From an uncultured Candidatus Saccharibacteria bacterium (lineage in GTDB: Bacteria; Patescibacteriota; Minisyncoccia; Phycocordibacterales; PALSA-1337), in NCBI GenBank assembly GCA_964492835.1, contig CAZBLC010000002.1:7375-71374 (forward strand): DNA of 64,000 bases, read 5' to 3'. A program made the translations under genes and the position numbers. The notes beneath the pieces were generated by a model. It was not told where the DNA came from. It saw only the letters and a list, made by a program, of their open reading frames with translations, and did no database searches. Positions 543-4,751 of this stretch are shown here, piece after piece (position 1 is the stretch's first letter; each line of letters begins with the position of its first letter).

Positions 543-2687
543 CTATTTCCTTGTCTCAACAATAGCTGCCTCTACGTTCTTTGGAACTACTTCATAGTGA
601 TCAAATTCCATAGTTGCACTTCCCTGACCTGATGTCATTGAACGCAATTGTGTTGTGTATCCGAACATCTCTGACAATGGAACCATAGCGTGTAGCACCT
701 TTGCCTGTCCTCTCTCTGTCATTTCTTCAATTGTTCCTCTCTTTGATGAAATACTTCCTGTAACATCTCCCATGAACTTCTCTGGGAATAGTACTTCAAG
801 CTTCATGATAGGTTCTAGGATAACTGGACGAGCTCTCTTTGCTGCTTCTTGGAATGCTTGTGATCCAGCAATCTTGTAAGCAATTTCAGATGAGTCCACG
901 TCGTGGTATGATCCGAATGTTAGTTCACAACTTACATTCACCATTCTAAATCCGGCAACTACTCCACGATCCATAGCCTCATGTACTCCCTTCTCTACAG
1001 CTGGAATGAACTCATTTGGAATAACTCCTCCCTTGATTGAGTCGATGAATTCAAAGTCATCATATCTACTAACATTCTTAGGAATCTTCACTCCTGGCTC
1101 AATCTTCTCCATAGGCTTAATATTGATCTTTACGTGACCATATTGTCCCTTACCTCCAGACTGCTTGATGTACTTGTGTTCAGCCTCAGCAGTACCTAGA
1201 ATTGTCTCTCTGTATGCTACCTGTGGCTTACCAACGTTAGTCTCTACTCCGAACTCTCTCTTCATACGATCAACCATGATGTCTAGGTGTAGCTCACCCA
1301 TACCTGAGATGATTGTCTCTCCTGTCTCACTGTTTGATGAGATCTTGAATGTTGGATCTTCATTAGCAAGCTTCTTAAGAGCCATACCCATTTTCTCTTG
1401 ATCTGCCTTTGTCTTTGGTTCAACTCTTAGAGATACCACTGGTTCTAGGAATTTGATAGTTTCAAGTATTACTGGCTTGTTCTCATCACAGAATGTGTGT
1501 GATGTAAGAGCATCCTTTAGTCCTACAGCAGCTGCAATCTCTCCTGCGTATACTTTCTTCACCTCCTCTCTCTTGTCTGCCTGTAGACGCACTATACGTC
1601 CTAATCTCTCCTTCTTTCCAGTTGTCGAGTTGTAAATGTATGTTCCTGATTCAATTGTTCCAGAATATACACGGAAGAATGTAAGCTGACCTACGAATGG
1701 ATCGTTTTGTAATTTAAATGCTAGAGCTGCAAATGGCTCTTCGTCAGAAGGTCCACGGAATATCTCTTCTCCCGTATTAGGATCTGTTCCTCTAACAGCC
1801 TTAATATCTGTAGGAGCTGGTAGATAGTCAACAACAGCATCTAGTACTAGCTGAACTCCAACGTTCTTTAGAGCTGATCCAGTGAATACTGGGAACATCT
1901 TGTTGTCGATAACTAGTTTTCTGATTTCTGTCTTTAGAACATCTACTGGTATCTCCTTTCCATCTAGGTACTGTTGCATTAGAACATCGTTATGCTCAAC
2001 TGCCTTCTCAACTAGTTCAGCATGATATTTCTTAGCATCAGCTAGTAGGTTCTCAGGGATTTCCTTCTCGATGATGTTAATACCCTTCTCTCCGTCAAAG
2101 AAATATGCCTTCATCTTTAGAAGATCTACAACTCCTTCATGATCTCCTTCTGTTCCAACTGGGATTTGGAATCTTACTGCCTTCTTGTTTAGTCTCTCTA
2201 GAATAGATGCATATGATTTCTCAAATGATGCTCCCATTCTGTCCATTTTGTTAATGAAACAAAGACGAGGCACATTACTTTCATCTGCATATCTCCAGTT
2301 TGTCTCTGATTGAGGCTCTACTCCGGCTACTCCGTCAAACACCACAACAGCTCCGTCTAGAACACGTAGTGAACGCTTCACCTCTACTGTAAAGTCGATG
2401 TGTCCTGGAGTATCGATAACGTTAAAACGTACTTTCTTTGAAGTATCTGTCTTAGGCATGTATGAAGGGTTCCAGAAACAAGTAATAGCAGCTGCGGTAA
2501 TTGTAATACCACGCTCTCTCTCCTGTTCCATCCAGTCAGTAGTTGTCGCTCCGTCATGCACCTCTCCAATCTTATGGATCATACCTGTGTAATACAGAAT
2601 ACGTTCTGATGTAGTAGTCTTACCTGCATCAATATGGGCAATGATTCCGAAGTTACGAACTTTTTCTAGTGGATAGTCTCTTTGCAT
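543..2687 (-). CDS. fusA: translation elongation factor G
   Basis: 714 aa. N-terminal GTPase motifs AHIDAGKTT, DTPGH, NKMD. Length and architecture match EF-G. Follows rpsG/rpsL as in the str operon. Confidence 0.95.
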   Translation of the reverse strand: MQRDYPLEKVRNFGIIAHIDAGKTTTSERILYYTGMIHKIGEVHDGATTTDWMEQERERGITITAAAITCFWNPSYMPKTDTSKKVRFNVIDTPGHIDFTVEVKRSLRVLDGAVVVFDGVAGVEPQSETNWRYADESNVPRLCFINKMDRMGASFEKSYASILERLNKKAVRFQIPVGTEGDHEGVVDLLKMKAYFFDGEKGINIIEKEIPENLLADAKKYHAELVEKAVEHNDVLMQQYLDGKEIPVDVLKTEIRKLVIDNKMFPVFTGSALKNVGVQLVLDAVVDYLPAPTDIKAVRGTDPNTGEEIFRGPSDEEPFAALAFKLQNDPFVGQLTFFRVYSGTIESGTYIYNSTTGKKERLGRIVRLQADKREEVKKVYAGEIAAAVGLKDALTSHTFCDENKPVILETIKFLEPVVSLRVEPKTKADQEKMGMALKKLANEDPTFKISSNSETGETIISGMGELHLDIMVDRMKREFGVETNVGKPQVAYRETILGTAEAEHKYIKQSGGKGQYGHVKINIKPMEKIEPGVKIPKNVSRYDDFEFIDSIKGGVIPNEFIPAVEKGVHEAMDRGVVAGFRMVNVSCELTFGSYHDVDSSEIAYKIAGSQAFQEAAKRARPVILEPIMKLEVLFPEKFMGDVTGSISSKRGTIEEMTERGQAKVLHAMVPLSEMFGYTTQLRSMTSGQGSATMEFDHYEVVPKNVEAAIVETRK

Positions 2688-2754
2688 AAATTAAATTAAT
2701 ATAATAAGAAGTAACAGTTAGATTACCTTAAATTGGGATAAAATGCAAAATTTG

Positions 2755-3276
2755 TTATGAGTTAAACCCAATTTTATTACTTTTCTTTATAGGTTCGTCT
2801 AGCAGTCTCTTTATAAAATCATATATTGTAGCTATGTCCTTACCTTGATCTTCTTGGTTTTTCTCCAATTCTTCCATCTTTATAGCCAGATCCTTGTGGG
2901 TAGATAGCATTTCTCTGAGTTTAGCGAATGCTCTGATTATGAATATATTCATCTGTACCGCCCTATCACTCTTAAGTACTGAGGAAAGCATACCGACTCC
3001 GAGTTCGGTGAATGCGTATGGCAAGTATCTACGTCCCCCCTTTGAGATTGCAATTTGCAATCTCAAAGAATCCAACTCAACTTGAGTAAGCTGAAACATA
3101 AAATCCTCTGGAAATCTGTCCATATTACGCTTAACAGCCAGGTTTAAGTTACCAGTTTTAACTTGGTATAACTCGGCCAAAACAAAGTCCAGCATCACTT
3201 TCTGTCCGCGAATTATAAATATTCGCTTCTCTATTATTTCAGACGGAATTGTACTTAATTCTTTCTCTTCTTTCAT
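2755..3276 (-). CDS. ORF6N/KilA-N-like (phage antirepressor N-terminal type) DNA-binding domain protein
   Basis: 173 aa. Central segment RGQKVMLDFVLAELYQV...NLAVKRNMDRFPEDFMFQLT...RRYLPYAFTELGVGMLSSVLKSDRAVQMNIFIIRAF resembles the ORF6N/KilA-N fold found in phage antirepressor-like proteins. Sits between rpsG and fusA. Confidence 0.55.
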   Translation of the reverse strand: MKEEKELSTIPSEIIEKRIFIIRGQKVMLDFVLAELYQVKTGNLNLAVKRNMDRFPEDFMFQLTQVELDSLRLQIAISKGGRRYLPYAFTELGVGMLSSVLKSDRAVQMNIFIIRAFAKLREMLSTHKDLAIKMEELEKNQEDQGKDIATIYDFIKRLLDEPIKKSNKIGFNS

Positions 3277-3397
3277 GTAAGAATTATGACAAATGTGATA
3301 GTAATATCAATACTAAAAAATACAAAAATTTTATCCAGATTTCATTTCGTGGGGATAACTTTTGATTCGTTACGGAAATTTGTTAAAATACTAACAA

Positions 3398-3646
3398 ATG
3401 AGTAAGAAATCTTCGAAAATAACAGAGGATACGTTCAATTGGTGTTTTGCTATCATTAATGGAAAACTTGGACAAATATTTTTTAAGAAAGGATCGAGGA
3501 GTGTCGAGGGTATATTTGGTCATAGTTATCATAGCAAAAAAGATATTTTTAGTGCTGAAGAAAAGAAGATGATTGGTAGTGATATTAAGAAGCATCAGTT
3601 CTCCTTTCGAAAAGGAAAGTATAATCGAGTTAATGTTCCTGTTTGA
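3398..3646 (+). CDS. small basic hypothetical protein (uncertain)
   Basis: 82-aa Lys-rich ORF in the 550-bp spacer between ORF6N gene and rpsG. Ends exactly at the first palindrome of the hairpin array. No homology recognised. Confidence 0.2.
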   Translation: MSKKSSKITEDTFNWCFAIINGKLGQIFFKKGSRSVEGIFGHSYHSKKDIFSAEEKKMIGSDIKKHQFSFRKGKYNRVNVPV

Positions 3647-3810
3647 GGCTGCAAATTGCAGCCTCAAACTTGATATTGCAATTTGCAATCTCAAGTTGAA
3701 GTATCTCTGAGGTGCCAATTTGACGCCTCAGAACTTGGTATTCCAATCTGGAATACCAAGTTAAATAAAAATACCTTTGAGGTTTCAGATTGAAACTTCA
3801 AAGGTATTTT
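3641..3810. repeat. tandem array of five inverted repeats (25-44 bp) with CAAnTTG-type centres
   Basis: Palindromes read directly from the sequence. 3641-3669 is gtttgaggctgcaaattgcagcctcaaac. 3669-3695 is cttgatattgcaatttgcaatctcaag. 3706-3731 is ctgaggtgccaatttgacgcctcag. 3734-3760 is cttggtattccaatctggaataccaag. 3767-3810 is aaaatacctttgaggtttcagattgaaacttcaaaggtatttt. A sixth near-identical copy (ctttgagattgcaatttgcaatctcaaag, 3041-3070) lies inside the ORF6N coding region. Confidence 0.8.
3767..3810 (-). terminator. rho-independent terminator candidate downstream of rpsG (also the last palindrome of the array)
   Basis: About 20-bp stem with a 3-nt loop 20 nt downstream of the rpsG stop, followed on the minus strand by a U-rich tract (uuuuauuuaac). 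Confidence 0.5.
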
Positions 3811-3829
3811 TAATATAGTATTTTTGGTA

Positions 3830-4300
3830 TTACCAAGCAAAGTGAGCGAATGCCTTGTTTGCCTCTGCCATCTTGTGTGTATTCTCTCTCTTCTTTACTG
3901 CTTCTCCTTCGTTCTTTGATGCTGCAAATATTTCTTCTGCTAGTTTTTCTGCCATTGGCTTACCTTTCTTTGAACGAGCAGCTAGAACTATCCACTTCAT
4001 TGATAGGGCTCTCTGTCTCTCTGGACGAACTTCACGAGGAACTTGATAGTTAGCACCTCCAACACGTCTAGCACGTACTTCCATTGCTGGCATAGTGTTC
4101 TTTAGAGCTGTCTCGAATACTTCAAGAGCGTTATCTGTCTTAGCCTTTTCCTTTATTATCTCAAAACAATCGTATACAACCTTTCTAGCTGTAGCCTTCT
4201 TTCCTGAGTCCATAACATAGTTAATTAGCTTTGAAACCTTTACGGATTCAAAAACAGGTTCAGGTTTTAATGGATGCTTGTTCTTTATTCTTCTTCTCAT
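3830..4300 (-). CDS. rpsG: 30S ribosomal protein S7
   Basis: 156 aa. Typical S7 sequence (…[12 protein letters not shown]…). Position between rpsL and fusA. Confidence 0.95.
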
Positions 4301-4331
4301 AGTGATATTTTAATATTTTAGTAATTTAACA

Positions 4332-4751
4332 TTAAACCTTAGCTGCCTTTGGCTTCTTGTTTCCGTATTGACTTCGACCCTTTCTTCTCTTCTCTACTCC
4401 AGCTGCATCTAGAACTCCGCGAACAACTGTGTATCTTAGTCCTACGTCCTTTACACGTCCTCCTCTTAGTAGTACCACTGAGTGTTCCTGTAGGTTATGT
4501 CCTTCTCCTGGGATGTAAGCTGTAACTTCAAGACCATTTGATAGTCTTACACGGGCAATCTTACGGATAGCTGAGTTAGGCTTCTTAGGTGTCTTTGTTG
4601 TAACCTTTATACAAACTCCTCTCTTAAATGGAGATGGAAAGAAGCTAGGACGATTCTCAATACTATTGAAAGTTCGTGTTAGAGCTACTGACTTTGTCTT
4701 TCTGATAAATTTCTTACGATTCTTACGCACAAGCTGATTAATTGTTGGCAT
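4332..4751 (-). CDS. rpsL: 30S ribosomal protein S12
   Basis: 139 aa starting [10 protein letters not shown]…, conserved S12 core (…PKKPNSA(I/L)RK…). Confidence 0.95.

Follow-up and report, generated by a model that had tools for sequence, protein, structure and literature searches.

In a 64,000-nucleotide stretch of the genome of an uncultured Candidatus Saccharibacteria bacterium (GenBank assembly GCA_964492835.1, contig CAZBLC010000002.1, positions 7,375 to 71,374; hereafter the window), six palindromes of 27-47 bp (H0 to H5) with the common centre CA-NNN-TG span positions 3040-3812, one of them lying inside a gene for an ORF6N-domain protein and the other five forming an array downstream of rpsG. 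They are copies of a DNA element belonging to the ORF6N gene family, namely a 27-31 bp dyad in which the outer yTTGAGG/CCTCAAr and the CA-NNN-TG centre are conserved and the inner pairs covary freely. From the comparison of sequences we assign a probability of about one half to the reading that the six palindromes are cognate DNA sites of the ORF6N protein, with the outermost one, H5, acting in addition as a two-way terminator.

The link with the gene family emerged from 80 genome loci chosen on protein similarity alone, only the best 80 loci per search being examined. In 87 of the 94 ORF6N coding sequences that they contain, which come from many phyla, the same codons hold a palindrome with 10 or more of 12 Watson-Crick pairs. 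Its family form, yTTGAGG-NNN-CAA-N-TTG-NNN-CCTCAAr, is flanked by the RFPxDFMF and GGRR motifs and is translated as L-R-x-Q-x-x-x-S; the window copy, H0, specifies S-L-R-L-Q-I-A-I-S-K, ORF6N residues 70-79, which an AlphaFold2 model places where a helix ends and a low-confidence loop begins. Most of the genes falling below the pairing threshold, including homologues on phage contigs, have register-shifted or 9-of-12 versions, and L046 is the sole locus clearly devoid of an intragenic palindrome. The syntenic relative L001 (rpsL-rpsG-ORF6N-fusA, with an ORF6N protein 70% identical to that of the window) holds the same palindrome in its coding sequence, with a G-to-T change on one arm and a compensating C-to-A change on the other. 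In L012, L021, L031, L061 and L106 a second hairpin follows in tandem and in frame, yielding an extra L-R-x-Q-x-x-x-S segment, so that this part of the protein, where several homologues tolerate such additions, looks permissive. Three or four ORF6N paralogues were also observed head-to-tail in L010 (1832-4141), L049 (2474-3947), L050 (1059-2477) and L025 (2573-4171), and in the first three of these loci the internal palindrome variant differs in each paralogue. The palindrome is not described in the literature that mentions ORF6N.

The constraint on pairing was evaluated on an alignment of 113 sites, by comparison with column shuffles (500 for the covariation score). Paired cells amount to 91.3% against 71.8% in the shuffles, and the covariation score is 0.529 against 0.173, none of the 500 shuffles being as high. 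Both-side changes are seen at 12 of the 14 pairs. The half-site reads yTTrAnrTnnCAA, with columns 4, 7, 10, 13 and 14 conserved at 90-100%, and the innermost variable pair is G-C at 43 sites, A-T at 33 and C-G at 32. At the codon level, 82 of 87 genes have a codon 6 that ends in the complement of the middle base of codon 3, which is itself variable (G 51, A 20, C 14, T 2). The resulting combinations of codons 3 and 6 are Ser-TCG with Ala-GCG (26), Ser-TCA with Val-GTG (25), Phe-TTC with Gly-GGA (12), Leu-TTG with Ala-GCA (7), Cys-TGC with Gly-GGC (5) and Tyr-TAC with Gly-GGT (2), and for codons 2 and 7 Arg-AGG accompanies Thr-ACC in 34 genes and Arg-AGA accompanies Ile-ATC in 10. Since these couplings include synonymous positions, it is the symmetry of the DNA that sets the amino acids at four or five positions, and the explanation of the palindrome as a mere by-product of a conserved peptide was rejected because synonymous sites covary. 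On a neighbour-joining tree of the proteins of 83 genes, with the hairpin residues masked, the codon-3 type switches at least 37 times (about 48 for random placement), which points to many independent compensated events; descent of the covariation from a few inherited events was rejected on the same count.

The kind of mismatch that is tolerated bears on the level at which symmetry is maintained. An RNA hairpin selected on the sense strand is expected to tolerate G.U far better than A.C. Among 1092 pairs in the coding-sequence copies, 18 G.T and 22 A.C mismatches were counted, and external copies likewise show no excess of G.T over A.C. The two mismatches being equally rare, the symmetry is kept on both strands; this shows that the constraint acts on DNA and not on a single RNA strand. 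Symmetry at the DNA level would fit three mechanisms, namely dyad recognition in the duplex, formation of a hairpin or cruciform, and arm-to-arm correction by template switching.

Copies outside the coding sequence were sought in 459 kb of ORF6N loci with a strict threshold, on which the counts depend. The scan returned 117 family-type hairpins (none in shuffled sequences), 91 of them inside ORF6N coding sequences, 23 upstream, three just downstream and none elsewhere. All are in an ORF6N gene or within 200 nt of one, the array of the window (365-495 nt) being the exception. About a quarter of the loci have one or two extra copies just upstream of, or flanking, the ORF6N gene. Outside the window the upstream hairpins are 4-200 nt from the protein match and end typically 2-70 nt before the start codon, as in about 20 of the 77 other loci, the most frequent distance, approximately 30 nt, recurring in unrelated phyla. 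An external copy is, by a small but significant margin, closer to the internal copy of its own gene than to those of other loci (9.19 versus 8.48 of 12 positions, P about 0.008), and external copies often differ from the internal one at the variable pairs, yet stay self-complementary. In L086 three near-identical copies (2847-2873, 3187-3217 and 3524-3550) are separated by 342 and 335 bp: two identical hairpins bound the ORF6N cassette and the third is inside the gene, so arranged that the intergenic space between two unrelated genes is nearly filled and the downstream hairpin contains the ORF6N stop codon. In L039 two tandem hairpins precede ORF6N in an unrelated context. A hit of a loose hairpin scan in L127 was discarded as an ordinary GC-rich terminator. 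No promoter layout shared by the external copies is visible across phyla, and no clear helical phasing of external and internal sites was obtained by hand from the coordinates; a recurrent external-internal spacing of 269-270 bp is due to the conserved architecture of the gene. In the 64 kb window and the 459 kb of loci, no family-like copy was seen other than in or beside an ORF6N gene, and the suggestion, made in a first-pass annotation of this DNA, of a dispersed mobile palindromic repeat is not supported. No conserved partner gene was detected either, all-versus-all clustering of the neighbouring open reading frames (ORFs) giving only antisense shadows of ORF6N, so that the ORF6N protein is the sole factor common to loci of very different phyla.

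The ORF6N protein of the window (173 residues) scores 112 bits with Pfam PF10543 (cut-off, 27.8). The homologues scored number more than 8000, with 50-70% identity across many phyla; their hosts are candidate phyla radiation (CPR) bacteria, Acidobacteriota, Planctomycetota, Bacteroidota and Proteobacteria, as well as plasmids and some phage contigs. Homologues are present on Bacteroides, Legionella and other plasmids and on integrative elements, beside integrases, and only five metagenomic matches were found in annotated phage genomes. The gene is very abundant and solitary, lacking a conserved partner. The AlphaFold2 model (predicted local distance difference test score, 79) comprises a predicted winged-helix domain (residues ~18-100) and, after it, a long helix spanning about 55 residues (104-159). 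With Foldseek the N-terminal domain resembles the Dachshund/SKI winged-helix DNA-binding domain (probability 0.99, E = 0.04, target-normalised template-modelling score 0.57); no solved structure of a sequence relative was found. The helix-turn-helix residues are nearly invariant and match invariant half-site positions. PADLOC classifies the protein as the defence candidate PDC-S05 (E = 2e-55). One PDC-S05 member, carrying a RhuM domain, was reported in a preprint to give 10- to 1000-fold protection in E. coli (bioRxiv 10.1101/2024.09.26.614923), and it is uncertain whether this result carries over to the window protein.

The six palindromes reported in the first-pass annotation are all present, at the positions it gave or 1-3 nt from them, and its rpsG and ORF6N gene calls are correct; the one correction concerns an 82-codon ORF on the plus strand between the array and ORF6N, whose stop codon falls inside H1. 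The features are collected in the table.

Table. Coordinates in the window of the palindromes, given with their arms and pairing, and of the neighbouring features.
Feature	Position	Strand	Description
H0	3040-3068		inside ORF6N coding sequence; 14-nt arms, 100% complementary; -13.1 kcal/mol, z = -8.4
H1	3641-3669		GTTTGAGGCTGCAA-A-TTGCAGCCTCAAAC; 14-nt arms, 100% complementary
H2	3667-3697		AACTTGATATTGCAA-T-TTGCAATCTCAAGTT; 15-nt arms, 93%, one T/C mismatch
H3	3706-3732		TCTGAGGTGCCA-ATT-TGACGCCTCAGA; 12 pairs: 10 Watson-Crick, one G.T (+ strand), one C/A mismatch
H4	3732-3762		AACTTGGTATTCCA-ATC-TGGAATACCAAGTT; 14-nt arms, 100% complementary
H5	3766-3812		core CTTTGAGGTTTCA-GAT-TGAAACTTCAAAG; A/T runs extend arms to 22 nt; 95%, one G.T; -18.5 kcal/mol
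ORF6N gene, 173 aa	2755-3276	-	Pfam PF10543, E = 1.7e-32
Predicted ORF6N promoter	3283-3310	-	TTGATA-16-(TG)CATAAT; consensus match only, 10/12
Orphan 82-codon ORF	3398-3646	+	between ORF6N and array, array directly 3'; predicted promoter 3362-3389
rpsG	3830-4300	-	insert starts ~17 nt past rpsG stop codon
fusA promoter-like element	2720-2748	-	TTGCAT-17-TAATCT; kept in relatives with rpsG-fusA insert

With DNA parameters each of the six folds to a single hairpin (-6.7 to -18.5 kcal/mol, z from -3.6 to -9.8). In the fold of the 201-nt array, five stacked hairpins are seen whichever strand is used (z = -12.4 and -13.6). Most of the six have the outer TTGAGG/CCTCAA in common. The closest copy of H0 is H2, with 24 of 25 positions identical, so that the near-copy noticed at first inspection is real. 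The weakest member is H3 (-6.7 kcal/mol, z = -3.6), and H4 is of a TTGGTAT subtype, which elsewhere accompanies a different ORF6N subfamily (motif L-V-S-Q-N-V-I-P). Centre spacing within the array is irregular (about 27, 36, 29 and 42 nt). The consensus TTGAGRYTGCAANTTGCARYCTCAA, searched with up to three mismatches and 100 shuffles as a control, matches only H0, H1 and H2 in the window and nothing in the shuffles, and relaxing the scan to a CA-N3-TG centre with 9 or more of 12 pairs returned the six palindromes, H3 with 9 of 12, together with two unrelated 9-of-12 sites. U-runs after the H5 stem were recognised by eye in the folds of both strands; a terminator scanning tool lists H1 alone, on the plus strand, and H2-H4 have no T-run. 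A search of Rfam 15 over region 2600-4400 at E values up to 10 yielded nothing beyond sub-threshold chance matches to eukaryotic microRNA and small nucleolar RNA models. A 13-nt exact inverted match (TTTAACTTGGTAT / ATACCAAGTTAAA) was also noticed between the ORF6N coding sequence (3157-3169) and the right arm of H4 (3753-3765), with a rough chance expectation of ~0.04 for the region; it may be a trace of the origin of H4.

All housekeeping genes of this part of the window are on the minus strand (rpsL 4751-4332, rpsG 4300-3830, fusA 2687-543), and the rpsG-fusA spacer (2688-3829) is filled by a 1.14 kb insert. Along the minus strand the insert comprises H5 to H1 (3812-3641), the 82-codon ORF in antisense, a divergent promoter region of ~120 nt between that ORF and ORF6N, the ORF6N gene, the only one of its family in the window, and a 67-nt spacer before fusA. 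The predicted ORF6N promoter, as read from its consensus match, ends 7 nt ahead of the ATG and would lead to a leaderless mRNA. The 82-codon ORF is lysine-rich, and the promoter-like site at 3362-3389 would make its mRNA leaderless as well; its TGA stop (3644-3646) is within the left arm of H1, as the ORF6N stop of L086 is inside a flanking hairpin. Its sole match among 5.8 billion proteins is itself, Pfam and PADLOC gave no match, and a profile comparison revealed no relation to ORF6N. At the other end, the fusA element TTGCAT-17 nt-TAAnnT is conserved in the window and in L001, L092, L094, L106 and L122, and empty rpsG-fusA spacers were seen to lack a promoter-like element for fusA; judging from these motifs, fusA seems to gain its own promoter together with the insert.

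The context of the insert was explored in 80 metagenomic rpsG relatives (L087-L166), whose RpsG is 69-90% identical to that of the window. The rpsG-fusA spacer measures 6-60 nt in many of them and 350-2450 nt in others, where the cargo consists of unrelated small genes for membrane proteins, a RelBE-like pair, a GIY-YIG protein, an NYN-domain protein or ORF6N. By this comparison of spacers, the rpsG-fusA interval is an insertion hot spot in this CPR lineage. ORF6N is present there in at least seven relatives, in both orientations and with 49-70% identity, which points to repeated insertion into the hot spot. The ORF6N flanks common to the window, L001, L092 and L094 are an TTATCCCC motif upstream and the TTGCAT-17-TAAnnT fusA element downstream. 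The upstream motif is part of an inverted repeat, TTATCC(CC)...GGATAA followed by a T-run, that is conserved upstream of the ORF6N promoter in the window (3331-3358, minus strand) and in L001 (4888-4925); the TTATCCCC part was also seen in L092, and L094 is similar in sequence over the region. This repeat may be the old rpsG terminator or a second regulatory site. None of the relatives sampled has a counterpart of a 460-nt stretch that includes the array and the 82-codon ORF; this stretch is therefore regarded as a secondary insert directly after rpsG. In the sample of 80 rpsG relatives and 160 ORF6N loci, no genome but this one has the array, five copies being the largest cluster seen. The idea that it is a decayed ORF6N pseudogene was abandoned, as the hairpin-encoded peptide was all that a six-frame hmmsearch with the family profile recovered.

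Similar arrangements in independent lineages are those of L106, L008 and L039. In L106 two tandem hairpins, the first followed by a T-run, come right after rpsG beside an oppositely oriented ORF6N, and in L008 (~2870-3000; a metagenome-assembled genome labelled Saccharibacteria) ORF6N directly follows rpsG, with one family hairpin 26 nt past the rpsG stop. The latter was also noted as a third independent case of the order rpsG, hairpin, ORF6N.

According to the reading of the palindromes as cognate sites, ORF6N, a predicted winged-helix protein whose long helix might mediate pairing, would bind the dyads on duplex DNA or on extruded hairpins, and binding would control its own expression, the intragenic site being an auxiliary site or a roadblock in the manner of lac O2 and gal OI. 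Each gene would have one obligatory site inside and optional sites outside, the latter having been amplified here to five abutting copies through local duplication; the outermost copy, H5, would then have acquired its A/T-run extensions and would end transcription of both rpsG and the small convergent ORF. The last point takes up an earlier proposal that H5 doubles as the rpsG terminator, which is plausible from its long stem and the U-runs on both strands. An operator array for a dimeric binder, possibly ORF6N, had also been proposed. The link with ORF6N holds, given the palindrome in nearly all homologues, the extra copies only beside ORF6N and the winged-helix model, whereas a simple operator array sits poorly with the distance of the array from the gene, the complementary divergence of its copies and their absence in relatives; on these sequence features the operator mechanism is plausible.

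Several observations weigh against the reading as cognate sites. Counted from the ORF6N start, the array is at 365-535 nt, past both the predicted ORF6N promoter and the divergent ORF, and the retention of five diverged copies so far away is not accounted for. It is absent in all relatives sampled, and external copies are missing altogether from L001, which among the relatives sharing this ORF6N cassette is the closest, so that the array is dispensable for the ORF6N gene. Recognition of duplex half-sites by one protein does not predict self-complementary copies that differ at the variable pairs; their complementarity requires hairpin or cruciform formation or arm correction by template switching. 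H4 departs from the family at the otherwise conserved A of column 7 and resembles the palindrome of the other ORF6N subfamily. Lastly, the palindrome-encoded residues are outside the predicted recognition helix, so that nothing links the sequence of the site to the specificity of the protein. A form of the proposal that puts structure first would have a pairing-selected hairpin or cruciform fix six or seven codons, ORF6N recognising this structure in the gene and in flanking copies as a self-marker, so that autoregulation would be coupled to cassette mobility or to the proposed anti-phage role, with arrays as amplified decoy or nucleation sites; we consider it unlikely in this specific form.

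The palindromes might instead be structural DNA hairpins serving as recombination or mobility sites of an ORF6N cassette, as do the ends of REP/RAYT elements or attC sites, with the array being what repeated turnover of the cassette left behind at the hot spot, as scars or duplications. The L086 cassette, bounded by two identical hairpins, would be such a unit, and in L026 a truncated ORF6N fragment begins at a hairpin; the in-frame tandem duplications, the entry of only 49-70% identical copies into the rpsG-fusA spacer both ways round, the 50-70% identity across phyla of a family found on plasmids and integrative elements, the different subtypes within the array and the pairing maintained on both strands all agree with mobility. 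However, no hairpin that could serve as a target is present in empty rpsG-fusA spacers, and terminal hairpins are missing from the majority of ORF6N loci, among them L001 and, on its fusA side, the window insert. No recombinase or HUH (histidine-hydrophobic-histidine) nuclease is associated, the break of a gene fragment in L065 is not at a hairpin, and L086 is the one clean cassette flanked on both sides that was found. We regard this explanation as doubtful. A purely transcript-level role, in which an RNA hairpin stack without a protein partner would terminate or stabilise the convergent transcripts of rpsL-rpsG and of the small ORF, is quite improbable: the five strong hairpins predicted from either strand, the U-runs flanking H5, the terminator-like listing of H1, the plus-strand G.T pairs of H3 and H5 and the classical terminator that follows rpsG in other insert-bearing relatives (L158, for example) are in its favour, but the family shows no bias of G.U over A.C, T-runs are missing from H1-H4 and from nearly all external copies elsewhere, and a terminator explains neither the conserved centre and outer bases nor the intragenic copy nor the strict co-occurrence with ORF6N. 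For similar reasons the attenuator into ORF6N-fusA that was envisaged earlier is weak, T-runs being confined to H5, ORF6N and fusA having predicted promoters of their own and the G.U bias being absent; the promoter-like element of fusA makes such a device unnecessary.

It is just as improbable that the array lacks a function of its own and is a neutral tandem amplification, made by slippage, of an ORF6N-type palindrome whose arms are kept complementary by quasi-palindrome correction. Such correction through template switching is an established mutational mechanism, the array is confined to this genome in the whole sample, the doubling of hairpins in tandem is recurrent and the spacer is hypervariable. 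Against neutrality, the copies have diverged at several pairs, yet four of the five are near-perfect and keep the positions conserved in the family, which suggests separate maintenance of each copy, and external copies recur at their preferred position, ~30 nt before the start codon, in unrelated phyla.

Comparison with known systems helps to place the element. As in the case of lac O2 within lacZ and gal OI within galE, a dyad site inside a coding sequence is accompanied by related sites upstream and by a protein with a DNA-binding head, and the long helix of the ORF6N model could mediate oligomerisation. Differences from lac and gal are that the intragenic site is in the regulator's own gene, that it is a perfect 27-31 bp palindrome found across phyla, and that it overrides codon and amino-acid choice, with covariation of the non-conserved pairs; binding and looping are putative here. 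A cognate site within its own protein's gene, in a permissive stretch of the coding sequence, is known from lambda O (the ori iterons in the O linker), Bacillus subtilis Spo0J (parS in spo0J), pT181 RepC (the origin cruciform in repC) and small terminase (pac), and the tandem dyads of the lambda iterons and of F sopC resemble the five-copy array. Unlike these, ORF6N is a chromosomal gene standing by itself: neither a ParA, Rep or terminase partner nor a setting of replication, partition or packaging goes with it.

Among palindromic repeats, REP (repetitive extragenic palindromic) sequences, REPINs (hairpin-forming REP doublets) and their RAYT (REP-associated tyrosine transposase) genes are similar to the ORF6N loci in that short palindromes with preserved hairpin potential flank a single-copy gene encoding the sole associated protein. 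REP/REPIN copies are dispersed in tens to hundreds, whereas ORF6N copies are within ~200 nt of the gene elsewhere and ~500 nt in the window, in the 64 kb and 459 kb scanned; furthermore, RAYT is an HUH Y1 transposase, whereas ORF6N is a PF10543 protein with a winged-helix-like model and no transposase match, and one copy is inside its coding sequence. Rickettsia palindromic elements are likewise translated in a tolerant surface segment, but they are 100-150 bp long, scattered in unrelated genes of one lineage and decaying, whereas the ORF6N element is 27-31 bp long, at one position, present across phyla and actively maintained. Intrinsic terminators resemble H5 in its long stem, in the U-runs recognised by eye on both strands and in its position between convergent genes; in contrast, H0-H4 and nearly all homologous copies have no U-tract, and their conserved sequence is superfluous for termination. 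The element also differs from integron attC sites (imperfect, 57-141 bp, with R/L boxes, extrahelical bases and intI), as its palindromes are 27-31 bp long, mostly perfect and without a conserved integrase neighbour; from the type III toxin-antitoxin system ToxIN (regular direct repeats of ~34-36 nt, transcribed ahead of an endoribonuclease toxin), as spacing is irregular, units are palindromes that differ in sequence, ORF6N is modelled as a winged-helix protein and PADLOC reports PDC-S05 rather than ToxN; and from CRISPR (identical repeats, uniform unique spacers), as the array units abut or overlap, differ from each other and enclose no spacers. A separate AT-rich palindrome at 457-494, with 18-bp arms (AATAAAATAACTGGTATT-AG-TATACCAGTTATTTTATT) and ~50 nt downstream of the fusA stop, was also seen; its appearance is that of a two-way terminator, and it has no relation to the ORF6N family.

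The arrangement appears to be of a known kind, that of a DNA-binding protein with cognate sites, one of which is inside its own gene; what is apparently undescribed is that, throughout a very large family, the choice of codons and residues gives way to the symmetry of the site. For annotation purposes, the hairpin stack that follows rpsG should not be taken as an ordinary terminator or as a new RNA. The element further offers a natural example, unusually clean, of protein sequence dictated by a nucleic-acid constraint and, as such, is relevant to the interpretation of residue covariation in proteins. For the ORF6N family itself, abundant and without a known function, the self-encoded palindrome is the first concrete clue to the target of the protein.

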